Assembly (NCBI GenBank): GCA_010093815.1
Contig: ML996572.1
DNA length: 64,000 nucleotides
From: Pseudovirgaria hyperparasitica
Taxonomy: Eukaryota
Reading direction: 5' to 3' (one strand)
Below are positions 8,501 through 29,114 of the stretch, piece by piece (positions within the stretch are counted from its first letter, which is position 1; each line of letters begins with the position of its first letter). A program made the translations under genes and the position numbers. The notes beneath the pieces are model-generated. The model did no database searches. It worked only from the letters and a program-made list of their open reading frames with translations, and had not been told where the DNA came from.

Positions 8501-11500
8501 CTCGGGTATACTAACTGTGTCTTTACAGCTAGGGAAAGATCAGATTCGTCGAGAACATCTCGACAGTTTTGGTCGAGCCAATCTTGAAATCTCATCATAT
8601 ACATGGCTTCTTTCAAGTTCCCATCGACTAATCGCTGTCTGCCACTCAGCTTGAATGACATCAAGTGCTCAGGAGCAGCTAGAATGATATCGCCGTCTTT
8701 CAAACATTCTTTGTGAAGCTTCTCAAATAAGCCTAGAATACCGCCTGTCGTCTTCGTTCTACGCGAGAAAGGGATATGAACGATTCGGCGGCCAATAAGG
8801 CCCCCCAGGCGGGACTGGAGAATTTGGGCTGTCTGCAACAACAGAGCCTTCGGGACAATGAGACGGACAAGTCGTTTTCCGTTCGCTAGCTCCGCAGCGA
8901 CCATCGGCATGATGCAAGAAGTTTTACCTGCACGAAATCAACAGACGCAATTCGAAAGGACTACATTTCACGTACCACGACCCATGTTGAGCTGCAAGAC
9001 CGTATTCTTTCCATTCCTCGGGTGTATCACCTCCTTTGCTACGTTGTGTTGCTCTCCACGTATCAATAAATTACTCTCAGCCTCCATCAAGAGCCATTCG
9101 GTATGGTCGCGTGGAGCCCATCCATAGTGACCGGGATTTTTCCACTCTTCTAGAAGACTGTTTTGGTCAGACTTCAAAGCTGCGTCCTGCATTCTGAGCA
9201 GCCATTGTAATGTGGCAAGCTGACTTGCATACTCCAGAAGAAGATCTCGAAGATCTTTATTAATGAGTTGCAAAGTCGAACTTCTTAATAACTCAAGAAG
9301 AGAGGTAGTTGTAGAGCAAGGCCAGAGACCTCCACGTCGAAGCCAGTCAGAAGTGACCATACTGCTATCAAGTGAATGACTCATGCTCTTGAACAGGGCA
9401 CTCAAGACCTCACTCGTCTTATTGATACTGAGACCTATTAATTCAAGGCTCGGCGGCTTCGATAAAACACCAGAAGATGTCTCTCGATTTCTGAGGACAC
9501 TCAGACTAGCTTCAAGATCCGCTCCATATCTAGCCCTGACATCGTTAAAGGATCTTGTGAAGTTGCAGAGTATCTTTTCAAGCTCTTTTTCCATCGCAGT
9601 CCGGTCATTTTCCACGGGCGCTGGCCGCTGTGGGCCAGATGGTCCATTCCGAGTGTCTGTGACCTGATTTAGAAAGGGTATGTGGACGACCTTATTTGGC
9701 TGGGGTTCCAAGCTTGCATCAGACGCAAGGGTCATCAGGGATGGGGTCAACTGTGCTGGAAGTAATTTTGATTCATGAACGGCCACGTACTGACCGGTCC
9801 AGACATGAGGAGTGGTAAAAGCGAGGGGTTTGTAATATCTATCCAGGATGGACTGCACCTGATCTACGAAGATAGATAGCCCTCTATTCCGAGAAAGTCG
9901 TTCCCATTCCGGTGTAATTCTTTCCAAAGCATCTTCCAGATCAATGATAGTTGTCTCGAATCCATCGATAGATAACTCGGTGGTGGGCCATTGCCTACAG
10001 AAGAAGTCTGCCACTAGTTTGCTCTCTGCGACACACTTCGCGTGATGGTCTTCAGCTTCGATTTCCCTCTTGAACCTCCTGCCTTGCATTCGGCCCATTG
10101 GGGCTGGGTGGCTCTGAAGGATGAGTGCCTGTAGCGGTTTCTTTTTAGGGACTTCGTGATGCTTAAAGTCGGTGTATGAGTCTTCTTCGGGCCATGTGAT
10201 ACTCTCCATTTCGGGGATACGCGCAAACGCAGCTAGCATTTGAATGGCGTCTATGCTTAGGTTCTTGTTGAATGATAAGACAGCAAGTCGATACATATTG
10301 TCATAGTTGAACACACCCTTGGCGTGGCTGAGTATGCGAGCAAGGCTGCCCCATTGTTGACCAAGGTCAACATCCATAACGGTAGCCAGAGTTAAGGTCT
10401 CGTGTCTGAGATCGTCCTTGAAACCACCTATCAGAGGAAATTTCTCAAAGACTTGTGCGAGAGTGCGAGGAAGATCTAGGTTGAACTCCTTCATGCACAA
10501 CAAGACCACAGTTTGGTAGACCTCGGTGCTTCTATTTTCACTGAGCGCTTTGTCCCTGCTTGGATACTTCAGATCCACACAGAGGCTTTTGTTCTCAGTC
10601 AGTATTGAGGCACGTTCAAAGCGTTGTCTCTGACAAATTGCGCGATCTCTCAGATAGTCAGGCTCAGACTGTGTATACAGATCTTTTCCTGTATTTTGAA
10701 TGAATGAATCTAACTCTTGAGAGCGACGCAGAATTGATGACACGGCGTCAAAGAGGCGATCTCCTTGAATTGAGACAGTCAAGTCGTCTTTCCATGTACA
10801 CCTCTGAAGTCGTTTCATTCCCGTGGGGTAAAATTCACGAGAAGGACAAAGATTCGCAATATCGCCGAGTATTGAGATAGGCACCGAATTTAGAGAAGTC
10901 CAGGGTGAAGCCTGGCCCGATTGCAATATGGCTAGAGCCTCTTCTTGTCCAGTCCGACCAGTGAGTACATCTGGCAATACGAACGACGTGTATGCATGAT
11001 ATCTGGCCTTGAGATAGATTAACAAAGGCTCCGGGGCACAGGTCAAGCGACCCAGGACTTTGTCAATATTGAATCGCGCATATGTAGACGTGCTGGCTGC
11101 TGTGACGGAAACGTGCATGCCTTGCCGCTCAAATATTAATGGACCGGTTGATGTTATTATGCTACGCTGCTCGTAGTTCAACGGGTTTCGTAAAACGATT
11201 TTGCTCCTCAATCCATAGAATGTACCCGGGTCCTGATTAGGGTCAATCTCAGACTGGAGCTCTTTTGATTCAAATAGTCTATTCCGATTAAGAAAGAACG
11301 TCAGATCTAGATAGCGAAGCTCTACACACAAACTTCCACGAGCAGGTTGATAGGCGGTGATCCGCTCCGGGATTTCGAAGCCGCCGAAGATTTGAGTAAT
11401 TTGGGAGAATAGCCTGGACTGTGGGCTAACTAATCTGACACACCGGCGCTTCGCGGTAGCAGAATTCATGTCGACTACCCAATCACTCGCGATTGTCTTC

Positions 11501-14500
11501 CAGACATGAGGCTTTCGTCGCGTCTCCAGACGACCGGAGTCTAGTTTCAGCCAGTGGACGCAGTCGTCAAGGAGGCTGGCGGGTAAATCGAATCCTGTAT
11601 CATCTTTGAATAGCCGCCGAGGTATAAACTCATGCAGACCATCCTCTGACCAGGCTTGAATGATGACTCTGTCCCCTTTTGTACCGAAGTATACTTCGTG
11701 GCCTTGCATTCTAGTTCCGAGACGATAGCTCATACCGTTGAAGGTAGCCGGGAATGTTAACAAGTGTTGTTGTCCAAAGAGATCCTGTACATCTGCTGAT
11801 GAGCTGATCTCATTAGGGAGCCTCCCAAGAGGTTTGCCATTCACAAGGAGGTAGCCTTCGAGGAAATGATATTGGATATTATCCTCGACGACTCTGCCAT
11901 TAAGCTGGCGGCGAAATACTGCTGTGACCCAATGCTCGTATGGTGGCAACTGAAGTACCCAAGTGGCGTTTCGGTCACTTACGGAGTGAGGCTCTCCCCA
12001 TGTCGCTTTGATAGCTGTCTCAACTTCGACCTGATACAGCAGCAAAGCAATAACAAGTTGAGGTCTGAGCGCCTGAACCATTTTCAGGTCAGCAGTCGCA
12101 AAGTTCTGCAAAGAGCTTGGTAGGTCTTTGATAGCAACCACAAAGTTTGCTCTTAATGCTAAAGATGCCTGTATGAAGACATTGACATCTTCGGCGGTCA
12201 TTTCTGTGGCTGAGCTAGCCATATGGGCGAACGTACGACGACAAAGGATAGCAGCCCAAAACCCGTATGTCGTAGCTACGTCGACAGTGCTTGGATCCGT
12301 TGCATTCATGATCTGTGTTCGAAGTATTGTTGCCCACTTCAAAGTTGTTTTCCGTGCCGTTCCTAGTAGCTCCAAGGCAATCGTACGATATGCTTTCGGG
12401 GACATTTCAATGACGCGCAAGAGCAAGATAATGATAACTGCCATGCAATTGTGCTCTCGCCAATTGGATTCAATAATGGAGAGTTTCTGTTCAAGAGCTT
12501 CGAGAAGGCATTCGCAAAATTGGGACTCTTGTAAGAAGTGATGATGATCCATAGCCTTTCCCTTGACCTTAGTCAAAGGCCCGACCTGCAGAGAAAGTTG
12601 CGTCAAAACTAACATCGTGTCTTCAGAGCTGAAATTGATATTAGTAGAGCTCAGTTCGACTAGTATTGCCATCCACCGTAGTTTCATAGTGGACAGCAAC
12701 TTCTGATAAGATGCGAATTCCATCTTCGAAATACCTGCTGGGCATTTAGTCTGTCCAGCGACAATCTCATATGAACTCGGTCCTGTAACAGTGGCTGGAG
12801 GGTGTTGGGGTACTTCTATGACGGTATTGATGATACATCGAGGAACATGGATACCAAAGAGGTGCTGTAGCGTAGGTGGAAGGTTGAGGTCATCCACCCA
12901 TATTTTCGCCTCCGAGTCATAGTATGCGAACTTGAGACCATTAGGTAGGAGGATATCCTTCAACTCAACTTTCATTCTTTGTGAGCTGAAGTGTGTCTGC
13001 AGAAAAGACTTCTTCTGAGAGGCAAGCGTAATCGACGTAGATCGTTTTCTTCGGTATGGCCCTAATTGTGAATAGTTGTCCAATTCCATGGAAGGGACTG
13101 AGGACTGCACTGGCCTACCTGGGTATGCCAGATCAAGCAAGATCTTCCAGACCACCTGTCGATACATTTCAATGTGGTGTGGAGTGCCTAGCTCAAAGAC
13201 AGTGACACCGCTCTGCACTTCGTCGGCGGACAAGTAGTCCTCATGGCAAGTCATCTTCATGCGCTTCTGCATTCGCCAGTGCCAGCAACGGGTACAACCC
13301 TTGACGATACGAGCTCCATTCATGTCAGTCCTGCAGACGCACGACCCTTTTGAGGCACCTTTGGCGTGCATATCATACTCGGTGCATGCCTCAGCCCACT
13401 CCCTTTCTTTGGCTACGCGGCGTTTTGTGCTGGTCTTCTGTATCTTTGCTCGGAGAGCCTGTAGATCTGGTTGTTCAGATACGAAATTTACAGCAAAGCA
13501 TTGGTCGTCTATTGAACTCAACATGTTCCTTCCCGGATAACGACAATTCTGCTTTCGATCGAACATGTACTCTTGTATTACGCGAAGGCGCTCTTGATCT
13601 ATCCGGAGTGAAAGTTGTAATACATTAAGAAGTTCTGGTGTGAACATAATATCATATTGCACGGTGAGAGGACAGGCTACTGCAAGCCACTTGTCCATCT
13701 CAGCCCATAGATCGAATACACTCAGGACAAATATGCTGCGCTGGTCGGGACCAAGATGGAGCGGCTCAATCCGCGCGAACATACCGAGAATGTCTTTCGC
13801 GAGGCTGATAACCCTATCTTCAGGTGACACAGTACAGGTCAGGCTGCGAAGGGTGCGGCACCTAATGTGATCTTCCATTAGAGCGAGGCTATAGTACAGC
13901 TCGGCTTCGATGTGCGCTTCTCCCATCTTAATGCTAAACTCTGGTTGCGCATTTAAGGATTGCACGAGATCAATATTGAAATGAAGAGATCGTATGCGCT
14001 CCTCAAGATATGCTTTACTGCGGGGCATTGGTAGGATCAAATCCGAGTCACTAGCAAACCTAGACAACATCGGTATCTTTCGAGTGATTACACGTTTGTA
14101 CGAAGTCCAAGCATTGCCAAAAGTTTCGTTTGCTTGGTCTATGACGTCCTGGAAGTAGCCACGGGCATTGTTCAGTAATGTTTGAGCGTCCCCTGAGACG
14201 CAGCCTTCAAGCTTGGCAAGACGGCGACATAGCTTGGTCCGGAGCAGAACGGACAATTCGATATGCAGTACACCTGACCCATCGCGTAGGAGTTCGGCTA
14301 GAAGGACACAACCAAGCAGCTTGTAGTAGGTTTTTCCCATCATATCTCCAAGTGCCCTGTACAGTTGTAGTTGAGACGTGACTCTAAGACCAAGCCACAA
14401 TGGTGCTCGTCTCCAAGGAATCTCCGACGTTCCAAAGTTTACGTCATCGTTCACTCGTTTCTGTATTCCAGTTGGCTCCACGGGGCTGCCTAGCCCTTCA

Positions 14501-15174
14501 AGAATAGCCATGAGGCATTGGCTTACGAGAGCAGGATCCTTTGTATCTCTGGACTCGGCAACCGACGCTTTCGCCTTGTCTGCACGCGCAGAGAATGAGC
14601 TCAGAGACTCTCTATTGGCCTGCTCTAGGTATCTGGCGAGATTGGATCGAAAGTGAGGATTGACAAACTCGGCTTGTGGTACTTCTACTGCTCGACCCGG
14701 AAAGTCCCAAAGAAGAGCGCCTTTGCTTGCGAGGACATGGGTTGACTGCGGAGACAGCTCGAACACTTCAATGATGATATTCTGATTTTTTCCGTCACTG
14801 TGCGTCCCGTTAGGAAGGAGTTTGTAAACAAGTAGCGATCAAGAATACCTGTTGGGCTTGCTGATAATCAAAGCAGAATTTTGTTCTCGCAAGTGGTACA
14901 AAACCATTGAACCAGCGCCCGACTCTTCAAATGAATTGAGTACTTGATCAACGTCGAGATTACATTTCGACAGTTGCAGACTATGCTGTAGAGAGCTCGA
15001 GACGGTGGCCAAGGGCTCGGTGGGATGAGAACGTAGCAAGGCTTGAAGTGTAGTACAGGCATGGATGAGCCGTTCGAAAAGAGCGACCTCAGTTTCTTCC
15101 AGTCTCGGATCTTGATGATCGGGGAGTCTTGGCGGTAAGACAATATGGTTATACACAGTTTCGATCGAAGCCAT
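5510..15174 (-). CDS. Giant DUF3638/DUF3645-family protein (SF2 helicase-like P-loop ATPase), about 3151 aa, 5 exons
   Basis: Exons 15174-14849, 14797-8976, 8927-7119, 7065-6308 and 6250-5510 sum to 9456 nt and stay in frame; all four introns are GT...AG. Splicing builds the Walker A motif QLNMGRGKTS and KDHTVQAAMRLR. Also present: VLDESD, AVPFEAKGVPSEQSEFGHPD (DUF3645-type), GFSGT, HTRGVD, and the family-like N-terminus YNHIVLPPRLP. Confidence 0.88.
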
Positions 15175-16925
15175 TCTGATAAAGATAGAGAACTTGATAA
15201 GATAGACGAAGAAGAAGAATTGATGTAGAGAAGATCGTGAGAAGGTCGCGAGAATAGGATAGAAAACAAACAGCGGTGAAGGTTCGTTAGCAAGGATTGT
15301 TGGAGTCACTCCAAAACCAGCAGAGAAAATCTGCATGCAATTTGCGGCCTGACGGGAAGATACAGCGCCGAGGTATCACAAGAATGGGCATAAGCGAATG
15401 AAGACCAGTGATCTGCGAGGCAAACACTGGGGAGCGAATGCTGGTGCGTGATTAAAGCCACAGACGGGAAGAGAGGTGAAAGTGGATGACCTGACCTTGT
15501 AATATAACAAAGACTTTGTTTGAAGTTGATGCTTCGCATTTGGGAAGTGTAAGCTGACACGCTGATCGACCTGGGATCTGTAGAAAGCTCACCTCTTTGC
15601 AGTGCTCACTTCTGCTCCAGCACTCGACCATTGTATAACCATAAACGTTGCCATATATGTTCCGTTGTACTGTACTGATGTATCTTATTCTGCAGTGTTC
15701 ATCGTGTTGAAAACAAAAAGCTAGTTCATATGCTCAGTGTCAGAGTTGAGATTAGCAGTGAGAAGAAGGCTCATCGTCGAGCTTCTACCGCTGAAGGCTT
15801 CAAGATCCACCTCGAACAGACTGTTCCTACTCTGATAGTAGATAGAATACCAGAACACTGAGAATTGAAATTCAGAGCTGAGTGTCGCTGGACACTACGG
15901 CGCTGTTGCGACAAATACTAGAAGCAGCCTTTTGTCTAGAAAACACACATGGCGCAGTGATAAAGAAGAAACCTGAAACAAGGCTGAAGTACTTCTTTCG
16001 TCCATACTCCCCACACAGAAGTAGCAGCGCTCGTTCCTTCCTTCCTACCTTTCTTCCTTGCCACCTCACGTCACCTACCTAAGGTATATTTGCTCACAGC
16101 TAGGACTTTCCCGAGGTCTCGAAAGTGACTACTGAGAATACATCAAAGACAGCAAGTTGACCATATCTCACATGCCTTAAACTGCGCTCACTCGACAGCC
16201 CCCTCACCTCAGACTGCCATTTGTACTTGTCACACAAACTGGCAGGAGTCTAGCTGCAGCATCCGACAAGCCGAAACTTCCATTACGCATGAGAGAGCTA
16301 TTGCCTGGGTTTACCATATGCAAAGGTGTAGCAGCAGACGATTGTTTGATGGAGTGGAGAGGTGACCGTTATGGTTGTATACCCTCTTTGAGAGCAAATG
16401 GTTTGTTAGAACCTGGTTGATAAGTCGGGGCTTTAAGAGATGGTGAAAAGATTCGTGCTGGACGGGTGGTGGACGAGTGAGGGTGGTGGGCGGTGGGTTA
16501 GTTGGCTGAAGAGCCGCTCATGTTGCCAAGAAGAGTCCGGTCTGACTAGGAGAAGAAGATAATGGAAATTGAAGTCGTACCTTTGGCATTGAAGAGAAAT
16601 GCAATGTCTCAAGAGTAGAAAGAGACATGATCTTAGCAAGGAGAGCGAGACTCGAGAGTGATGTCACAAGGAAAGGTATCACGAAGAAGAAGAGAGAAGA
16701 CGACTTGGAGAGAAGAAGACGCAGAACTTTTGATTGAAGCGCACTATGCGCAAATGACAACGAGAACCGCAAGCAAACAGCAAAAAAGAAAAAGAAAAAC
16801 CCGGCAAAAGTCCAACGCAAACAAGCAACCACACCAAACAAACAACAGAAGAAAAGACACCCTGCAATGCATTTCAGTCCACCCAAGCTTCCGGCTCTTG
16901 CAATGACGCGACGACGACGAGGGCT

Positions 16926-18842
16926 CTACTCAAACTTGCGCGTGAAGTCATGCGAGTAGGTCTCCTTGGCCACTCGTCGCCGCTCGCCATTCTCACCTCG
17001 CTCCGTGCGGATGTACTCCTCCTGGACACGCGTGCCCACCGATCGTCCTTCAGCCCTGGCCTTCTGGGCCTCAACCGCCTTCGCAGCGGCTCTCTTCTGC
17101 TCGTCATCGTAGATGACTTGCGGGTTGTTCCAGCCAGAGAGCGCGGCGGACTGCGAGGGCGGCGGGCGGACGGCGGGCTTGGCTGAAGGCGGAGGCACCT
17201 TCTTGGCGGCGGAAGATGCGCCGGCGGGAGTCGAGGAGGCCAGTCCGTTCCGGGACTGGGCGTGGGCGTTCTTGCCGCGGCGCGAACGCTTTGGCTTTGG
17301 GGCCGGGGTGGAGGGTGCGGCGGGTGCGGCGGGTGCGCGTGAGGGCATCACCACATCGTCGAGCGCCCTGCCCTTACCTTTGTCCGCCTTACCTACAAAG
17401 GACCCCTTGCTAGGGGGCCCCGAGGAGTGGTGGGACGTCGGAGCCGGGGAGGGTGATGCGACGGAGTTGTGCTCCTCCTTACCTACGAAGGTCCCCTTGC
17501 TAGGGGGGCCCGAAGAGAGGCAGGAGCTTGGTGATGTTCCGGACGCGACACCGGACGCGGCAGCTTTCAGGGCAGCTGCGGCCCTTGCCTCCTTCGCGCG
17601 AAGGAACGGCGAACGGAGGTGTGGCGGGATGAACGCCGGCTTGACGGTGGTTGGAGTTGGCTTAGACTCCAGAGGTGCTTCAGGCACGTTGCCCTCGAGG
17701 GACAACGCGGGCACATCGTTGTCAGCGACCACGACAACGTGTGCGGAGGGCGGAGGCGAGGTGGCGAGAGGGAGACCGGGCGAGGCGGGGCGAGGCGAGG
17801 AGGGAGCAGGGGAAAGAGGTGCAGAGGGGACAGGTGAGAGGGGGAGAGGGAGAGTAGAGAGAGGAGAGGAGGGGACGGGCGCCGGCGAAGCTTCGACTTC
17901 TGGTGTCGAGAGTCGATGTTGTTGAAGGGCGGCGAGATCCGCCACCGTCCTCTGGAGCTGCTCCAGCTGTTCCTTCGTCGCGTCACCGGCCTTGACAGAG
18001 CCGGCGACGACTTCCTCTCGCAGGGCGTCGACCTGCCTGGAGGTTGACTTCTGGATTTCAGTGGAGCCAGCCTCCACTGCTTCTCTGACGCTTTGTCGAA
18101 GCGTTTCCGTCTGCGCGAGAGCAAGCTCGCGTGTGGCCTTCACCACGCCGCTCACTTGATCGTGCAGACGATCGAATTGAAGCTTTGTGGAGGCCGCTGC
18201 AAGGCCTCTCTCCTTCTTCATCTCCGCGACCAGAGCCTCCAGCTCTGACCGCTGCGTGTCCATCTGCGCAGTCTGCCTGCCCAGCTGATCTGCCTGACGA
18301 TCCAGGCGGGCGACCAACTCGTTCTCTCTGAGGACGCTGCTCCGAAGCAGCGTGAGGGAGAAAATCGATATGGCGAGAAGGGTCGCCGATCCCAGAGCCA
18401 TCATCACGGTGACGTGAGAGGATGAAATGGCTGGCTCTGGTTGCTGGGCCAGCACCGCATGGGCGGGAAGGGGATTTGCGGTGGGAGGGGGTGGTGCGAG
18501 GTTGACTCCGGTTTGACGGCGAACCGTCGTGGCCTGGGCGGAGGTAGCGTTGCCATTGACGATGGCTGTCACGCTGATTGAGATGCTCTCACCGCAGAGC
18601 ATGCCATAGATGCATGAAGATGGGGATTTGCCATCTATGGCACAGCTCTGAAACTTGCGGCCAATTCCTTGCATGTACTGCACTGTCTCGCTGGGCAGCT
18701 TAACGATAGCCGCATCTTGATAGAACGCTGCGACTTGAGGAAACTGATTGTGCACAGCTACACCGGTTCCGACGGCAACAGTTCCACCCACTACCGCTGT
18801 GGCAAGGGCTTTCGCCCACAACCCAAGATCCGACCAGTGCAT
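16926..18842 (-). CDS. Hypothetical membrane protein (638 aa): two hydrophobic segments, coiled coil, Pro/Ser/Ala-rich tail
   Basis: Long uninterrupted ORF. A canonical 5'-UTR intron at 18904..18852 (GTATGT...GCTAAC...CAG) places the start at ATG 18842 (MHWSDLG). Hydrophobic stretches ALATAVVGGTVAVGTGVAV and VTVMMALGSATLLAISIFSLTLL are followed by a heptad-like region. Confidence 0.7.
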   Translation of the reverse strand: MHWSDLGLWAKALATAVVGGTVAVGTGVAVHNQFPQVAAFYQDAAIVKLPSETVQYMQGIGRKFQSCAIDGKSPSSCIYGMLCGESISISVTAIVNGNATSAQATTVRRQTGVNLAPPPPTANPLPAHAVLAQQPEPAISSSHVTVMMALGSATLLAISIFSLTLLRSSVLRENELVARLDRQADQLGRQTAQMDTQRSELEALVAEMKKERGLAAASTKLQFDRLHDQVSGVVKATRELALAQTETLRQSVREAVEAGSTEIQKSTSRQVDALREEVVAGSVKAGDATKEQLEQLQRTVADLAALQQHRLSTPEVEASPAPVPSSPLSTLPLPLSPVPSAPLSPAPSSPRPASPGLPLATSPPPSAHVVVVADNDVPALSLEGNVPEAPLESKPTPTTVKPAFIPPHLRSPFLRAKEARAAAALKAAASGVASGTSPSSCLSSGPPSKGTFVGKEEHNSVASPSPAPTSHHSSGPPSKGSFVGKADKGKGRALDDVVMPSRAPAAPAAPSTPAPKPKRSRRGKNAHAQSRNGLASSTPAGASSAAKKVPPPSAKPAVRPPPSQSAALSGWNNPQVIYDDEQKRAAAKAVEAQKARAEGRSVGTRVQEEYIRTERGENGERRRVAKETYSHDFTRKFE

Positions 18843-21742
18843 CTCGGGATGCTGGAATGTTTCGTTAGCTGGGTTCTGTATACACGACAGAGTAAATGAC
18901 ATACCTTGGCCGGACGGGTGTGAGCTTTCAGAGCTTTCAATCAAGCGAGACTCCAGAGCTTGACAAAGCGGAGATTTGAGCCTTTCAATGAAATAGGAGA
19001 TATGGTCAAACTAGAGTGAGACGATCTCTGTGATTGTAGGGTTTGAGGTAGGTGTGAAGGTTGGCAAAGAAGAAGCTCAGGGTAAGTAAGAGTTGGAAAC
19101 TTGTTCGATGTTGTGGTATAGAGGAAGATGGTTTTAGCATGAAGAAGAGATGGTTGTAGCTGGCGGGGGAGCGGCGGTATAAATACCCTGGGGCACGGGC
19201 CGCAAGAAAATTCTGCATCGACCAGTCATCCCATTTAGTCGGCGATGACGTGTAAGATTATAGATAAGAAGTGAAAGTGAATCGTTAAACGAGTGTTGAG
19301 CGCTATTATATGGCAGTTTCGGCTGTGTAAACAATGTCAGTTCACGCGAAAGGGGCCGTGCGCGAGACTACGACAGGGATCAGCCGGGTTGACAGCGGTG
19401 TGGCTATCAGAATTGCGTAACCGATTCCTCTTGTACGACTTCCGGGGTTTAGCCATGACGTTTCGATGCCCGTGATGAGCAAATTAGGCAAAGCGATACC
19501 CGGGAATTGCGATGGATTGGAAAGCAATTGATGGAAGTGAAAAGCTGTGAAAGAGCCAAGAACACTCTTGTGCCGCAGCATCGAAAAGGTCGCGGACATC
19601 AGGGAGCAGTGATGAACATGAGCAAAGATTAGATGCGGAAATGGCTGAGCATGTAGCTGACAGTGAAATAAAAATGGCGACCAGTGAGAGAATATGTCCA
19701 GTAAAGATCAAGAAATATTTTATAGACTAAAAGAGAAATCCCGGGTAGTAATGAGAACGGTATACAGTTCGAGAAGAACAAGCGCTTATGCCTCTTGCGC
19801 AAGAGAAATTAACTTGACGATAGATACTGATGTTTGAGAGATTACGTGACGCTGTCCTGGATAGTATAAAACTGAGAGTATCCCCTGACTCTTGATAATA
19901 CCACTCCGGAGGCATCGACTGTCCAAGGGCGACATGGTCATGGCCACGGGTATGCACTGGATAATCCTGTCAATTTCGAACAGTACTTGTGAATGCCGCA
20001 GATGCGCATCCAAGCTGATGACAGCTAGCGACCTCATACTTTCTCCAAAGAAGCGACATAGTTTCAAGGACCTCGGAGCATGAACTCTGGGGATCAGTTT
20101 GTGGTCGATGGCCAGTCAGGACGCTCAATTTTCCCCCAAAGAGATGTCAATGAAGGAGCAGGTATGCTATGAAGTGGCAATAAAAAAATGAAAATTGACG
20201 CCATTGCAACTCGCAGCAGCTGATGAACCAAAAAAAATCGAGCATAGTTATGCGTAAGGCAGCTTTCATTTAACTCTGCTCTTGCTGAATGCTTGGCCAT
20301 TGCAAAGCCCCCATTGCCATGCGCAAAACGTGGGCAGGAGAGGACGTGAAAGTTACCGCAAGCATGCGGAGTCGCGTCAGAGCAGACTTGTTGATACTAT
20401 ACTAATGGAGGACCAGTCCTAAGACTTCCATCGTCACGACTGCTTCAAACTTACGTCTCGGGCGGATGTTGATGGCAGACAAGGGAGGAGCAGCCTCGAC
20501 AGAGCGATGCTGAGAATGCTAGTTGTGACAATTATATTGCGAAGCATCCACCGCGATATGAGTTTCGAAAGAAGAGTCGATCATGTACCTATGTCGATGT
20601 TGTCGTCTTCGGTCAGCATGTTCGGCGAGCGTGCGCAGGGTGTGATGAGATCGGACGCCCAAGCCCAGCGGTGGAATTGTACTAGAGGGAGAGGGTAGGG
20701 AGGCCACGGCATACAAAGAGATGGACGAGATGGCAGAAATGAGGTTGGAGTTGAGTCACTTGTGTGGAAAGAGAGGAGACTTGACGTTGACGTCTGAGTG
20801 TACTGTTGCCTCAGGCAGAAGCTACCAGGCTAGTGCCTTTTCTGGCTAGCACCATCCTCTCCGCATCTCAGACGTTTCTCGATCGGTCTTGTTGTCGTCC
20901 AACCTCCTCACTCGTCCATCTAGCCCAAAATGCCCATTCAGGCCACAAGGTACCCGCAATTTGTGGACATGCATCTGGGCCCAGTCAACATGAGAGTTGC
21001 AGTCTGAAACGATACTGTACTCGTCCGTGAAGCTTAAAAAGTGTTGAGACGCTGACCATTGCTTCAAAGAACCCGAACCGAGGCGCTTTAATTGACTTTG
21101 ACACGATACTGAGTATTGATATATCGACTGAAGTCACGCATGGCCTGCGACAAGCCCTGACTAGAGCTATTAAAGTTGCCCTCCCGTTCTACGACCCAGA
21201 CCTGCAGCAGGGGAACGCACCATCGGAGGAGAAGCCCGGAGATCAAGAATCCCGGAGATTTTGCAGATCCAGCGCATCGAAGTCACTGCCTCACAAAGTC
21301 AAGTTGCCATCCCGCCAGGAGTGTCAAAAACAGGACTGCGCTCGCCACTCTCTAGCAACATGGATGTTTGTCTGGGTTCCTGGCCCTGGGCCTGGATGTG
21401 TCAATACGCCACAAGGAGCGCTATCATTGAAGATGGAAGATGCCGATCAGGTTGACCAACACTTTGACAGCGTTTCCATGCATCAGATCCGGCATTGTAC
21501 CCAGTTTGGCTGTAGATACAGCACCATTACTGGCCAGTATAGCCTGCCTCGGCTGCTTTCCCCAGCACTCGCGTGGCGTCCACAAAATAGTGACACCAAC
21601 TGTGGGGTCCCCGCAAATAGCCAAGACGCTACCATGATTCAATATCGTAGCTAGGGCTGTTCAAGAGTTTGTGATGTAGGTCTGGGCTTCTGCTGTGCCT
21701 TGAGGTTCATTTCGTCGCGGATACACCGAGGTACTCGTTGGG

Positions 21743-21875: not shown

Positions 21876-22504
21876 ATGAAGGCTACGTTCGTACTTGCCG
21901 CTCTCGCTGTCGCCGTTGCTGGCCAGACCACTGCTGATATCCCTTCCTGTGCTGTAAGTCATAACCACTATGCATCTTACACTTCAATTGACACCATATA
22001 ACAGCTGCAATGTCTCGCCACTTCCATCACAGGCGCCGGCTGCTCTGTTGAAGACCAGGCCTGCAGCTGTGAGAAGACGGATGCCATCACCACCACTGCC
22101 ACACCTTGTGTGCTTGCCGCATGCTCTATCGATGATGCCCTTAGTACGTGTTCTCCCTTCTCCACTATTGTGTTGATATCTGGCTTAAGCCTTGTTCAAA
22201 CCATCCTAACATCAGCTCAGAGACCCAGCAAGTCACCCAGGCCATCTGCGCCAACCTGTCCAACGGTGGTGGCCAGTCCTCCGCCGCGCCCTCTGCCCCA
22301 GCTTCATCCGAAGCACCAGCACCATCCGAGGCACCATCGTCAGAGGAAACACCTGCACCCACTCCTACTCCTACGCCTACCCCCACTGGATCTGATGAGG
22401 AGCCCACTCCCACTTCGACTCCACCAACTTACACCGGTGCGGCTGCTCGCTACGGCGCAAACATCGCTGCCGGTGTCCTGGCTGTCGGTGCCGCTATGCT
22501 GTAG
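21876..22504 (+). CDS. GPI-anchored CFEM-domain cell-surface protein (3 exons)
   Basis: Signal peptide MKATFVLAALAVAVAG. Introns 21954-22004 and 22144-22220. The spliced product has the 8-Cys CFEM pattern IPSCALQCL...GCSVEDQACSC...TPCVLAAC...AIC, a Ser/Pro/Thr stalk and a GPI signal (YTGAAARYGANIAAGVLAVGAAML). Confidence 0.93.
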
Positions 22505-23089
22505 ATGAAGGTTTTAGAAGCTGCTCGTTGATCGGGGATGGCTTATACGATGTAATACGACCATATCGCAGGAATTTAATGCAGATGAATGAATGGAAGT
22601 AATTGGACATGACACCTGCTTTTTGTTCTGAATGACTCGTATATCACTTTTTCTGTTTTGTGATCTGACCTATACCCTCCCCCATGCACACTCCCTGATC
22701 TCTGCACATCCCGAACTTGGCCCTCTGTACATGTGCGAGCCTTTCACGCACCATCTTCCTTTCTCGAGCTTGAAGCTGTAGAAGTTTCCTACCCCCTGTC
22801 GAGATACACAATGCGAAAAGAGGGGGAAAAAAACCTATTCCAACGTATTCCACTGAATTCCAGTACCGCAACGCCCACATCCATCTCTCAACACCACACA
22901 TAGTCCTCCACGTCATTCTCTTCATCTCCTATATTCAGATAATGCACTTGTACCCATAACTCTCTCACTCTCTTCCAAGCATACCATAACTTTTAATAAG
23001 ATTTACTACAAAACCGGAATGATTACAGGGGCAATCTTTATGATCTTAAATATCAAATTTCAAGATTGTAGAGGTGGCATAAAATACGC

Positions 23090-24619
23090 CTAGGGAAGCC
23101 TCCGCCATATACTAACCTTTATCCTTTTTTCCGTCTTATCACGAGGTCTTTTTGGTCCTTCGTCTTGCCTTGCTGTGAAAATGATCGGTTCTATTGGATG
23201 CCTCCACACGAGATCTTTTTCGTATCTCCAAAAGATCGGATCCTTTAGAAAAACAGCAATTTTGATAGGGAATGGTCCCCAGCAGCTGGACGAGACTGCA
23301 AATGGTCGCCTTTGAATCGTTCTCTGTCCATCAGCAAAACTGGCATGCTATAAAATAGTTATTTCGTGCAGCGAAGTATTAGACAGTTCACATACTAGGA
23401 AGAACTTTACTTGCTCGATTTCTAAAGCTTCATCATCGCAACGTACGTGGGCATGCCACATGTACTGATTTCGGTCGACGCAATGACGTTTTTCAAATGT
23501 ATTAGCATACGCCAGAGTGATCTCGCGTGTAAAAGAACGTTCAGAGGTTTGAGCTAGTGTTCTAGCAGAGCTGAAGCTACAAAACGTTGCCGCAGAGGGT
23601 AAAAGAATGTCGATTGTCTGACAGACTGATTCCGCAGATGGTCGATAGTCGGCTTCCGTGCTAAGCATCTTCCGGACCTCCGTTGCCACAAATATGTAGT
23701 CTCCCTCTGGGGGTTCCCACTGCGATTCAAACCATGTAAATATGTTCTCAACATTAGCATGATAGGAGTGATCCGCGTTTCCTCGAAAAGCTTCCTTTTG
23801 CCCCTCAGGACTTAACCCACTACAAGAAGCCAGCATGTCGAGGAAAAGGCTCCCTAGGGAAAAGATATCGGCGTAAAGGGTGACACCCGTCAGGCCAGGC
23901 CGAATAATTTCAGGAGCAAAGTAAGACGAGACTCCGCGTAAACTATCCCCGGGTTGATCTGGTGTGCCTTCGGAATCATCGGACATCATTCCGAACCCAG
24001 TGACCCACAGCTTGTTGTCTTGTCCAAGGAGGATGTTCACTGGTGCAAGGCGCCCGTGCCGAATGCCGTTGTAATGAAGGTAAGCGACGGCTCTTGAGAT
24101 ACAGCCAAGACTCCCCATACATATCCTCAAGTACATGTCGCGCATGGCTTTCGTAGTCAAATCAGTTCCATTGTGGCCGAGTGAGGTTAGGGTTCCTTTG
24201 TCGTTCGCTGTGTCATCTTTGCTGGGCCTGTATTTAGGCAAGGACAGACGATCAATCTTCTTCAAGACAGTGGCAAGGTCACAAGTGGCTGCCACGGGGT
24301 CAAACAGAAGTCCGAAAGTGGAATCCCAAGCGTAAGATCCTCTGAGGCGTACTAGGTGAGAATGGTTCAGCATCTTCAATTTTTTGAACTCCTTTGCTGC
24401 GGCTTCGCTTTCTTCCCTCGTGATGATAGTTTTGGAGGGACGTTTCTTCTTCAAAACCAGGAGCTTCCCAGAGTATTTGAATTTGTATGAGTCACCATCG
24501 TACCTCTGCTCGTCGAAGGTAGCAAACTGTTGAATTGGGTCCTCCTGTTTAGACTCCCGAAAGAGATGTGACTCCCCTGCACCTGACCATTTCCAGTCAT
24601 CAAGATGAAAAGCGGCCAT
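23090..24619 (-). CDS. Fungal protein-kinase-like (probable pseudokinase) fused to a C-terminal YEATS-like domain (2 exons)
   Basis: Kinase subdomains LNHSHLVRLRGSY, AVAYLH..IRHGRLAPVNILL, YFAPE, ADIFSLG and YRPSA. Intron 23395..23348 (GTATGT...TAG) joins IEQVKFFL to HASFADGQRTIQRRPFAVSSSCWGPFPIKIAVFLK. Stop TAG at 23090-23092. Confidence 0.8.
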
Positions 24620-25104
24620 AGGTTCTTCCTATAAAATCGCACTCTTTGTATGAGTTTGCCGTAGAGAGTGCAAAGCTGAACGCCGACGCCACTAATACTG
24701 ACCGATCAAGAGATATCTAGATTGTCTCGACCAAGCATAAGGTTTGGCGTTAGTGTTGATGGCTATGGCAGTCTCGCTGGAAGTATTTAAAAATTGTTCA
24801 ATGGCGTGAGAAAAGATTCAACGCTTTGCTATCGCTCGGGGCATTCGAGACGACGAGGCGACGCGGAGAAAGTTAAGTAACAATGCCAAGCTCCTCACCG
24901 GTTTACCATCTGCATGGTGGAGTGGAGTGAGTCCTGCAGATAGCTCTCATCTCAGTGGTCGATCGCAAGGAATTCATTGAAAGTGGTGTACCCGATCATT
25001 GGATAGACACTCTTATCTGTATGAGTCATTCGTATTATCCATGTGCAGGCTTCCTCTAGGCGGCAAGGCAGACACGACCTCGTGAAGCATGGCTTACTCA
25101 ACGT

Positions 25105-25700
25105 TTTCAATTAACCTCGATAAAATATATATAATCTAATCCTCAAGTAGAATAAGCTAATCTATTTATTCTAGAGAGTAGTCTAATAAACATTTAAAGA
25201 AAATAGAATAGACTCTATAGTAGTATAATAAGAACTATACTAATTTATTACATATAATAATCTTTTATCTAGTATAATATATACTAGGACTCTATCTCTA
25301 GAACTACTAGAATATAATATAATAACTAGTTTAAGAAGAATATATTTTCTTCTTTACTCTTAAAAAGCTATATCTATTAGCTCTTTCTATAACTTAAGTA
25401 AGATAGTATAGATATAAAAGAGATAGAGAGAAGACGTAGAAGAGTATATACTATATTATATACTCTATCGGATTGCTTATCTAGGGGGGATTCTTATACT
25501 TAACTCTACTTTAAAATATATTTAAGTATAACTTCTAGTTATATGTTATTCCATGTAAGGGATAAATAGTATATATAGAATAAATTAGAAGTTATAGATA
25601 CTTAGTATTCGTTACTATATAGTACTATCCTAGGTAGAAAGCTACCATGTACGTGTATTAATTTTAAATAAGTATCTATCTATCTGGATTAGTTATACTA
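25105..25700. repeat. AT-rich tract, probably a RIP-degenerated repeat or transposon relic
   Basis: Abrupt drop in GC, with abundant TpA/TAG/CTA and visibly few CpA/TpG. No ORFs in the track. Confidence 0.75.
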
Positions 25701-25982
25701 CTACGTAAAGCTCGCGTATTCTTGCCCTCTCTTTCTCTCTCTCCCTCGGCCTCTTTATACATATACTATATCACACCAATCATATAAAGTCCCACATCAT
25801 ACACCCTATACACCAATCATATCGTCACCTCATATACATACATACACATACCCCAACCCCACCTACCAAGCCTAAGCACGCCCACCGCCAATCCATCCAC
25901 CTAGCAGCCAGCCCGTCAGAGACTCGAGCCTTATCAGGATAACCCACATACATATGCAAGACAGCATCAATCAATCAGATAC

Positions 25983-26180
25983 CATACATACATACATACA
26001 TACATACATACATACATACATACATACATACATACATACATACATACATACATACATACATACATACATACATACATNNNNNNNNNNACATACATACATA
26101 CATACATACATACATACATACATACATACATACATACATACATACATACATACATACATACATACATACATACATACATA
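25983..26180. repeat. (CATA)n microsatellite spanning a 10-N assembly gap (26078-26087)
   Basis: Direct tandem CATA units on both sides of the N run. Confidence 0.98.
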
Positions 26181-26270
26181 CAATCAAATACAATCAAATA
26201 CAATCAAATACAATCAAATACAATCAAATACAATCAAATACAATCAAATACAATCAAATACAATCAAATA
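26181..26270. repeat. (CAATCAAATA)x9 decamer minisatellite
   Basis: Nine perfect head-to-tail copies directly abutting the CATA array. Confidence 0.97.
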
Positions 26271-27215: not shown

Positions 27216-29114
27216 TCACCCCTGGCCCTCAACGAGCCGCCTCGTCATATCCTCCTGCACCCAGCCCTCGATCCTCGCCGCAACATCACCCACAAGCTGC
27301 TCATATGTAGCACTCAGGAAGAACAGCCCGCAATGGGCACCCACTTCGTCCACACCTTCCATGTACACGCGCACCCAGGTCGGATCGACCTTGCCGTACT
27401 GGTCTTTCGACGGCAGCATGCAGAATTTCCGGTCCCGCTTGGGTTTCTTGGGCGTATCGTCAGATGGAGGAGTCTCGCGTGACTGAGCGTCTGTATCGGT
27501 GCTGCGCATGGAAGGGGTTGAAGCAAGGGTGTTTTGCAGATTTGTGGAGCTGTCGTTCTCGTCGACGTAGCTGTCTTGGAAGCCGTCGTAGCTTGTTGTG
27601 TTGGTGATGGGTTGACCGATGACGCGTGCGTGTGGACTGCCATCATCATCGTCGTCGTCATTGTGTTCTGTTGCGACTTGGCTTTCAGAGCTGGTGGGTA
27701 TCGTGGCTTCGCTGACTTTGCGTTGCTCGCGTGCATCGCATCTCAGGGCTTCTTCCAGCTCTTTTCGCTCCGCAAGCGCGATTTCATGATCTTCAAGAAG
27801 TTGTTTGTACCTATTGACTTCACGCTCGTGTGTCTTTCTGGCAAAGTTCAACACACTTGGGTTTGGGTACGCTGACGGGTCGAATGGTGCTGGTTCCACC
27901 GGAGCAGGCGGGACGGCAGGGAGACTGGCGAGGAACTCCTCTTCCTCATCCTTCCGTAATGTATCCGTAATAGTAACCTGCTGCGTCTGAGAGGCTAGAT
28001 CATATGTACTATCTGCGGCCGCAATTTTCGCAACACTGCCTTCCCTGTGCTCCTCGTTTGACATGGTAGGACCTTCAGGTTTCGGTGGCTTGGGTTTCTT
28101 AGGTCTTCCTGTGCTCGCCGTATAGTAATTGACAAAGCGCACACGCGGAGGTGTCCCCGGAGTGCGCATCATAGTCTTCCGCTTGGCCGGGTCGTCTTCG
28201 TCCAAGGGCCGCATGCTCTGATATCGCTTCTTCAGGGTGGAATAATCGGCCATGGCGCCACCAAATTCGAGATGCGATGCTACATACTGCCTGCCTCCTT
28301 TAAGAATGTGCTTTCTATGTTTGTTCAGGAAATGCAAGGTACCCTCCCAGCCCTTTCTGACAGGCAGATTGACGTCGTTCCCAAAAGCGGGATTATAACC
28401 TGGATCTTGAGGGGGTCTAAACAAAGTGTCTGCTCTACCTGGCGTGCCCAGCGCTTCTGTCTCAGATATTGCCCCTTCCTTTGTCGATTTGTCGGCTGGA
28501 TTGAAAAGGCTCGCCAGCCCGCTTGAGATTACACCTGGATGCATACCCAAGAACGGCACGTCAAAGTTGATGGATCCGAGTATGCGGTGACGGAAGACAC
28601 TGGCGAAGTGTGGGGACTGCGTTGGTATGAGGATTACTTCCGCAGACAGGAGCCCTCCCATAGAGTGCCCGAGCAGAATCACATCTGTGTTTGGGTGTTC
28701 GTGCGGCGTGAGCCTGCAGCAAACGTCAGCACAGTCCATATCTGCAAGAGTATGCTTCTACCAAGCACTAAAGTCATCGCGAGCGAATTCAATTGCCCGG
28801 CGTGTCCTGTATTTTGGATATATTTTTGTATGTACGGTATGGGTGTCAGCCAGGGAGATTTTCACTAGGTTGTGGACGTGAGCCGGGAAGCTTTGAAAGC
28901 TTGTCTCGTCGCCTTGGAAGCCATGTATATAGACGAGAAGTAGTCTTCGCCTATGTTGACCGGCAGGGGCATCTTCTGGGAGGAGTGACTGGGTCGAGGA
29001 TGTTCTGGGATCGTGCGATTCGAGGTTCGAATGGGGATAGGGAGTGTACGGAGGAGGAGCATCTAATGGTGTGCTGTCCCGTGGAGGCAGCGGAGGCATA
29101 TTGGTACCGGCCAT
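27216..29114 (-). CDS. Alpha/beta-hydrolase (DUF676/PGAP1-like putative lipase/serine esterase), 2 exons
   Basis: Exon 1 (29114-28762) has LLLVYIHGFQGDETSF. Intron 28761..28714. Exon 2 has the nucleophile elbow LLGHSMGG, FDVPFLGMHPG and C-terminal MEGVDEVGAHCGLF. Confidence 0.88.

Follow-up and report, generated by a model that had tools for sequence, protein, structure and literature searches.

The window analyzed here, a stretch of 64,000 nucleotides (nt) from contig ML996572.1 of Pseudovirgaria hyperparasitica (assembly GCA_010093815.1), carries on its minus strand, at positions 24619-23090, a gene with two exons and one intron whose product of 493 amino acids (408 + 85) joins two domains. 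The larger part is a kinase fold that is predicted to be complete but catalytically degenerate (residues ~41-340); the smaller part is a YEATS domain that is apparently intact, with the residues of the acyl-lysine pocket retained. The intron is spliced and the gene is transcribed. Both domains are well known; their combination is new, is deposited under a generic name and is found in one genome only. Pseudokinases are established allosteric scaffolds, and YEATS domains represent the second major class of acyl-lysine readers. The interpretation that we favor, tentatively and at somewhat less than an even chance, is that of a non-catalytic adaptor whose YEATS domain would dock on acyl-lysine while the surface of the pseudokinase would bind a partner. 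The species has been described as a hyphomycete that parasitizes rust sori, i.e. as a mycoparasite (PMC3317363).

Gene structure and splicing

The following features of the gene are referred to throughout; all lie on the minus strand, and the basis of each assignment is given in brackets.

23396..24619, minus strand: coding part of exon 1, residues 1-408; a short N-terminal stretch precedes the kinase-like domain, which is followed by a Ser/Thr-rich linker and by the first half of the YEATS domain (sequence and translation; identical to residues 1-408 of the public protein P0002)
23348..23395, minus strand: intron of 48 nt in phase 0, starting with GTATGT and ending with TTATAG (skipped by the contigs of runs X1 and X2)
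23090..23347, minus strand: coding part of exon 2, residues 409-493 and the TAG stop at 23092-23090; it completes the YEATS domain and adds a basic tail (same sequence as residues 409-493 of P0002)
23600..24499, minus strand: kinase-like domain, approximately residues 41-340, predicted to be non-catalytic (Pfam; alignments to relatives and to solved kinases)
24035..24058, minus strand: degenerate catalytic loop H188-G-R-L-A-P-V-N195 (aligned to StkP, P0003 and P0004)
23990..23998, minus strand: G208-F-G at the DFG position (aligned to StkP, S6K, P0003 and P0004)
23093..23536, minus strand: YEATS domain, approximately residues 362-493, with the intron inside it (Pfam YEATS and pYEATS; phmmer; ESM Atlas model)
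23336..23347, minus strand: H409-A-S411-F412, the opening residues of exon 2 (alignment to YEATS4)
23270..23281, minus strand: W431-G432-P-F434 (alignment to YEATS4)
22602..24794, minus strand, approximate extent: transcript-like contig of run X1, 2145 nt without the intron (contig alignment)

The ATG at 24619 is the first possible start, with an in-frame stop three codons upstream. The 48-nt intron keeps the reading frame and ends in a TAG stop codon; hence, its retention would yield a protein truncated inside the YEATS domain. Contigs of both public runs (X1 and X2) join position 23347 to position 23396 and omit exactly these 48 nt, whose ends read CT..AC on the plus strand, i.e. GT..AG on the strand of the gene. 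Because the assembly contains the 48 nt and the contigs lack them at canonical splice sites, we read the contigs as derived from RNA. In each run, one contig covers the whole coding region, and between 22900 and ~24790 the contigs of X1 and X2 display no further joints, differences or indels. A second intron, suggested by a donor-like GTTAGT near 23115, was considered and rejected, as the contigs are colinear there. The right end of the X1 contig (24794) was placed directly and its left end (~22602) extrapolated from 298 letters beyond 22900; this extent implies a 5' untranslated region of ~175 nt and a 3' untranslated region of ~490 nt. Contig depth was not taken as a measure of the level of expression.

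Homology searches are consistent with this splice. Against Pfam YEATS, exon 2 by itself reaches 32.5 bits, the read-through form with its 16 intron-encoded residues 38.2 bits, and the spliced form 46.7 bits. Furthermore, BLASTP alignments to both YEATS domains of the RING-containing protein P0008 run ungapped across the L408|H409 junction.

The gene model was already public, since the spliced product is letter-for-letter identical to P0002, a public protein of 493 amino acids named 'kinase-like protein [Pseudovirgaria hyperparasitica]' by NCBI, which is present in NCBI and UniRef and whose record already lists both domains among its precomputed Pfam matches (PF00069, PF07714, PF03366 and PF20305). 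A previous reading of this stretch, made from the sequence alone, had proposed the 23396/23347 junction, an intact frame and a YEATS domain that is completed by a missed exon. The motifs it quoted (the degenerate catalytic loop, TGFG, HASF and WG) are all present in the spliced protein, the frame is intact, the contigs confirm the junction, and the gain from 32.5 to 46.7 bits bears out the completion of the domain. 'Missed' is correct for the track of open reading frames (ORFs), where exon 2 is absent, but not for the public model, which contains it.

A kinase fold without the catalytic residues

On P0002, the Pkinase profile (PF00069) scores 69.1 bits against a curated cut-off of 31.7, the best stretch covering residues 172-334 and positions 105-259 of the 263 in the profile; the piece encoded by exon 1 alone reaches 70 bits. 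PK_Tyr_Ser-Thr matches residues 65-267 with 46.7 bits. In the Pfam scan, reported at E up to 0.01, these two and the two YEATS profiles described below are the only families found.

The residues needed for catalysis are altered at several sites. In the catalytic loop (IRHGRLAPVN, residues 186-195), the segment HGRLAPVN (188-195) aligns with HRDLKPQN in StkP and with HKDLKPSN and HKDLKPTN in P0003 and P0004, so that Arg190 occupies the place of the catalytic Asp and Ala192 that of the loop Lys; Asn195 is retained. Within TGFG (residues 207-210), GFG starts at residue 208 in place of the metal-binding DFG, which is present in all 13 other kinases examined. The Gly-rich loop is degenerate as well: at the position of GHGSMG in P0003 and GRGVTS in P0004, the protein reads Y40-D-G-D-S-Y45, which lacks the GxGxxG pattern. 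These alignments to solved kinases and relatives support what the sequence-only reading had stated about the lost Asp and Lys of the loop, the lost Asp of DFG and the missing Gly-rich loop. Because the catalytic base, the loop Lys, the metal-binding Asp and the phosphate-binding loop are absent together, we predict, from what is established about the kinase mechanism, that the domain is a pseudokinase.

Other structural motifs of kinases are retained, namely N195, APE at 235-237, ADIFSLG and the Arg of DYRPS, a conserved residue that is found in P0003 and P0004 as part of an RP pair. According to the alignment, the β3 Lys would correspond to Lys57 (LVLKKK), paired with ALKRR of the relatives, and the αC Glu to Glu77, paired with their KE(I/Q). 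P0003 and P0004 are the nearest kinase relatives, with 31% and 29% identity, respectively, and both retain HKDLKPxN, DFG and the Gly-rich loop. In a quick tree of 14 kinases, built by maximum likelihood from 346 columns, the protein groups with P0003, P0004 and P0009, with 99% support in the Shimodaira-Hasegawa-like approximate likelihood ratio test. The end branch of our protein is the longest of the 14, with 2.92 changes per column vs. 0.77, 1.59 and 1.68 in P0003, P0004 and P0009.

A YEATS domain with a retained pocket

The YEATS profile (PF03366) matches residues 385-444 of P0002 with 46.7 bits (cut-off 22; E = 3.1e-12; profile positions 3-65 of 80). The prokaryotic profile pYEATS (PF20305) also matches, with 36.7 bits (cut-off 26.9), i.e. 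below the score of the eukaryotic one. The search of the spliced protein that had been proposed as a check thus puts Pkinase, YEATS and pYEATS all above their curated cut-offs.

When phmmer was used to compare residues 350-493 with the Protein Data Bank (PDB), 46 distinct sequences matched with E values of up to 1, and all of them belong to YEATS proteins. The best match is YEATS4/GAS41 (9e-07, residues 372-445), followed by Taf14, YEATS2, Yaf9, AF9, Sas5 and ENL; the alignments to AF9 cover residues 369-455. The segment 'flHaSFad' pairs with 'klHeSYgn' of GAS41, and 'scWGpF' with 'tgWGeF'. These segments contain HASF (residues 409-412) and CWGPF (residues 430-434), and H409, S411 and F412 as well as W431, G432 and F434 correspond column for column to H-E-S-Y and W-G-E-F of YEATS4. 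F412 aligns with Y74 of GAS41, and W431 with its W93. In GAS41, Y74 and W93 are described as clamping the acetylamide of acetyl-lysine, and mutation of either residue as abolishing binding (PMC5828395). As far as these alignments tell, the residues of the acyl-lysine pocket are retained and the domain appears intact. Overall identity to the best YEATS relatives amounts to 29-36%.

The part of the ESM Atlas model that covers residues 359-493 superposes on YEATS clusters over 105-129 residues, with template modeling (TM) scores of 0.63-0.77 normalized by the query. On the strength of this model, we provisionally assign the domain the immunoglobulin-like β-sandwich of YEATS proteins. The best structural matches in the Atlas are non-canonical YEATS proteins or clusters (TM 0.67-0.77). 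The YEATS half is basic, with an isoelectric point of 9.5.

Occurrence of the architecture

When the YEATS region was compared exhaustively by phmmer with 1,835,955,588 representatives (E up to 0.001), there were five matches and no second protein with Pkinase and YEATS: the protein itself, P0005 (tandem YEATS), P0008 (RING and two YEATS domains), P0006 and P0007. The last two are repeat proteins without a YEATS domain and were treated as spurious. When a whole-protein profile that includes relatives of both halves was applied to 8000 candidates, P0002 alone of the 15 matches at E up to 1e-10 contained PF03366. One word-indexed search gave three matches among 3167 candidates, with nothing nearer than 31% identity apart from the protein itself; a second one found only the protein itself among 30 candidates. 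In ESM Atlas clusters with at least 50 members, YEATS is combined with RING, RanBP1, SIR2 and AHD, but never with Pkinase, and the 30 clusters nearest to the whole protein are, without exception, plain kinases. Among metagenome contigs, 141 pattern matches led to no confirmed relative. A kinase-YEATS fusion was likewise not found in the literature, as judged from titles and abstracts among the matches listed; in PMC7159879, the word 'YEATS' occurs three times, each time as the name of a cited author.

Taken together, these searches fall short of a full survey of domain architectures; within what was searched, the fusion of Pkinase and YEATS is a singleton. This is in line with the sequence-only reading, which knew of no characterized protein of this architecture; our searches yielded no second example, characterized or not.

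P0005, P0008 and the Ascomycete Atlas clusters with RING+YEATS, RanBP1+YEATS and SIR2+YEATS point to non-canonical YEATS architectures in their own right; to our knowledge, none of these proteins has been characterized. In Ascomycota, YEATS is a mobile, shuffled module.

Comparison with known systems

Among solved structures, the YEATS domain of human YEATS4/GAS41 (PDB: 9x8u, 7eif, 5vna) is the closest relative. Both domains match Pfam YEATS and are alike in H-x-S-aromatic and W-G-x-F. The alignment spans only 74 residues at low identity; binding by the fungal domain is a prediction. GAS41 differs in being a small subunit of chromatin complexes with a coiled coil and no kinase domain. The closest YEATS sequences among the 1.84 billion representatives are those of P0008 (352 amino acids) and P0005 (217 amino acids). 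Unlike our protein, these two and the Ascomycete RING+YEATS and RanBP1+YEATS clusters have no kinase domain.

On the kinase side, P0003 (hypothetical protein DPSP01_012796 from Paraphaeosphaeria sporulosa) and P0004 share the motifs (V/A)A(T/I)CD, YFAPE and ADIFSLG with the query. They differ from it in that their catalytic motifs are kept, so that they are presumably active, and in that they possess no YEATS domain.

The pairing of a kinase or pseudokinase with acyl-lysine reading has parallels in chromatin. TAF1 and BRD4 are bromodomain proteins with reported kinase activity, and Tra1/TRRAP is the pseudokinase of NuA4 and SAGA; NuA4 also has a YEATS reader, Yaf9, but as a subunit distinct from the pseudokinase. 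The fungal fusion may follow the same logic. This is an analogy: the reader fold is another one (bromodomain, not YEATS), the kinase families differ as well, and none of these systems is homologous to the fusion. As for the prokaryotic pYEATS proteins, the query matches their profile but differs in being a eukaryotic gene whose domain is interrupted by a spliceosomal intron and which has no partners from conflict systems. Fungal NOD-like receptors (NLRs) with kinase domains are another possible comparison; the query lacks their central NACHT or NB-ARC module and C-terminal repeats.

Decay versus constraint

A frame of 493 codons is not expected to survive long under random substitution. In simulations, it stayed open with P = 0.33, 0.064 and 0.004 at 0.02, 0.05 and 0.1 changes per site, respectively. 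The codons of R190 (CGC), A192 (GCA) and G208 (GGG) are each at least two base changes away from codons for Asp, Lys and Asp, which adds up to at least six changes in nine bases. A phase of neutral change brief enough to leave the frame open would produce far fewer. These multi-step codon changes stand alongside an intact frame; provided that the ancestor had active motifs, as all relatives do, the loss of catalysis is probably old, and the frame, the splice sites and the YEATS pocket would have been kept after it. The intact frame argues against simple decay and is compatible with a weakly constrained gene.

Genomic surroundings

The gene lies on a contig of 1,656,338 bases, in a window with a GC content of ~0.49 over most of its length and with ordinary genes on both sides. 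The 'accessory region' in which the sequence-only reading had placed it is not supported by this context. The same reading had seen the gene beside DNA damaged by repeat-induced point mutation (RIP). There is indeed a RIP-like stretch of ~1 kb upstream of the gene; the window is otherwise ordinary:

25001..26000, no strand: AT-rich stretch with RIP-like indices (TA/AT 1.22-1.34; (CA+TG)/(AC+GT) 0.49-0.85; GC 0.29-0.37)

For comparison, the values of the whole window are 0.73 for TA/AT, 1.23 for (CA+TG)/(AC+GT) and 0.49 for GC. The stretch begins ~200 nt upstream of the 5' end of the transcript and is thus context outside the gene. RIP damage to the gene itself was considered and rejected, as the indices at 23001-25000 are normal (TA/AT 0.62-0.80; (CA+TG)/(AC+GT) 1.09-1.29). 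The AT-rich stretch is followed by a (CATA)n array of ~49.5 copies at 25983-26182, which contains an assembly gap of 10 N, and beyond it by an array of a 10-nt repeat, with 9.3 perfect copies of ATACAATCAA at 26178-26270. Farther upstream of the kinase-YEATS gene, an ORF at 27216-28757 has weak matches to alpha/beta hydrolases.

Downstream, a small CFEM gene (21876-22508, plus strand) is convergent with the kinase-YEATS gene. It scores 29.5 bits for CFEM in the region 22002-22508 and has a signal-peptide-like start (MKATFVLAALAVAVAG), a Ser/Pro/Thr-rich tail and at least one intron. The X2 contig (3667 nt) appears to continue from the kinase-YEATS gene towards this gene, and the 3' ends of the two may overlap. 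An ORF of 694 residues at 16926-19010 (minus strand) is without a Pfam match; its translation is rich in Pro, Ala and Ser, with a central stretch resembling a coiled coil, and the GC content of the window is highest here (0.67 at 17001-18000). A giant ORF at 8968-15375 (minus strand) extends over two adjoining frames and encodes at least ~2100 residues. Each of its two pieces holds a part of DUF6606 (59 and 184 bits), and DUF3638 starts at the C-terminal end of the larger one; the protein probably extends below 8968 across an intron. Among the neighbors examined (CFEM, DUF6606/DUF3638, alpha/beta hydrolase), there are no NLR, HET or other defense-type genes.

Interpretation

According to the model that we favor, the kinase-like domain would have no phosphorylation activity and would serve as part of an adaptor instead. 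Docking would take place through the YEATS pocket, with a lysine that carries an acetyl or another acyl group as the target, most likely in a histone tail. Such a target is consistent with the basic YEATS half and with the stretch PKRPRD...KRIK, which, read by eye only, resembles a nuclear localization signal. The dead kinase fold would offer a protein-binding surface that brings a partner to the acyl mark or holds it there, and this partner may be a paralogous kinase that is active, but also the substrate of a kinase or a regulator. The origin of the gene would probably be lineage-specific, from a member of a fast-diverging Ascomycete kinase family and a mobile YEATS module.

Several points weigh against this model. 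The nuclear signal is an impression by eye, and the evidence on the fold comes from the ESM Atlas model, which for the whole protein has a predicted TM score of 0.63 and a mean predicted local distance difference test of 0.66. Runs X1 and X2 come from one sample of one study, and the kind of library is not on record. The long kinase branch may fit relaxed constraint as well as a changed function. The argument from the integrity of the frame assumes an ancestral D, K and D and disregards indels and changes driven by selection. Finally, the sequence searches yielded no orthologue or close paralogue (31% identity at best for the kinase, 29-36% for YEATS); because no relative is close enough, selection on the fusion, in terms of the ratio of nonsynonymous to synonymous substitution rates (dN/dS), and its conservation cannot be measured.

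The alternative that we take most seriously, although we hold it to be rather unlikely, is a young, lineage-specific chimera of a duplicated kinase and a chance YEATS fragment, which is transcribed and spliced but drifts towards loss with little or no function. The gene is a singleton, without a counterpart in the sequence, Atlas or metagenome searches, and the longest end branch of the tree, the loss of all catalytic motifs and the RIP-like stretch directly upstream point in the same direction. On the other hand, the frame, the GT..AG intron, the start and the stop are intact, and a frame under neutrality would stay open at 0.1 changes per site with a probability of 0.004, while the catalytic codons have accumulated their six or more base changes within nine bases. 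Moreover, the YEATS pocket and the structural kinase motifs are retained despite an overall identity of ~30% to relatives, the gene itself bears no RIP signature, and both runs contain its spliced form. The rare architecture raises another suspicion, namely that a kinase gene and a YEATS gene were wrongly merged, as rare architectures are often annotation errors. We found no point that supports it: the kinase and the first half of YEATS share one uninterrupted frame in exon 1, single contigs of two runs span the coding region and the splice, and the intron interrupts the YEATS domain rather than separating it from the kinase. This artefact, to which we give next to no credence, is contradicted by the exon 1 frame and the contigs, and we reject it.

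If the protein is functional, its function could also be a different one. It would be an atypical active kinase, brought to acylated chromatin by YEATS, if other residues had taken over catalysis. Kinases without single canonical residues can be active, and Lys57, Glu77, Asn195 and APE are retained here; but the domain lacks the Gly-rich loop and the loop Lys along with both Asp residues, that of the catalytic loop and that of DFG, and an Arg occupies the position of the catalytic Asp. We hold this option to be very improbable. We also regard it as improbable, though less so, that the protein is a component of conflict or immunity, with the dead kinase as decoy or bait for effectors or toxins, or with YEATS as a sensor of a ligand or modification that signals antagonism, in the manner of prokaryotic pYEATS sensors and of the kinase domains in fungal NLRs. 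A role as sensor or decoy had also been raised as a possibility by the sequence-only reading. The pYEATS match exceeds its cut-off, and pYEATS is among the ligand-binding domains reported from prokaryotic conflict systems, according to a preprint of 2026 (10.64898/2026.10.19.760177); however, the eukaryotic YEATS model outscores it, most eukaryotic YEATS clusters match both models, and the best solved YEATS relatives are chromatin readers. Fungal NLRs are described as carrying kinase domains, proposed to be integrated decoys (PMC12258605). A similar Ascomycete kinase cluster in the Atlas has TPR_10 on 14% of its members, and P0009 has ankyrin repeats; in the Pfam scan, P0002 itself is without a NACHT, NB-ARC, HET, HeLo or repeat module. 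A fast-evolving, lineage-specific protein in a fungus described as a mycoparasite (PMC3317363) would suit such a role, but the neighboring genes (CFEM, DUF6606/DUF3638, alpha/beta hydrolase) are not defense genes.

A bolder version of the adaptor model, which we consider unlikely as it stands, would make the pseudokinase-YEATS protein the founder of a kind of reader not yet described. Recognition of acyl-lysine, be it on a histone, a non-histone or even a host-derived protein, would be linked in it to an active kinase that it controls allosterically or sequesters. The protein might then act as a sensor of metabolism or antagonism in this rust-dwelling fungus, rather than as a general chromatin factor.

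The weight of the finding is limited to one gene in one genome, with a generic public name and without orthologues. It adds to the evidence that YEATS domains are shuffled in Ascomycota, where RING, RanBP1 and SIR2 are known as partners, and the 493 amino acids of the fusion make it a compact, testable model protein. If the adaptor model is true, the fusion would show one route by which acylation marks can be wired to kinase signaling without catalysis.

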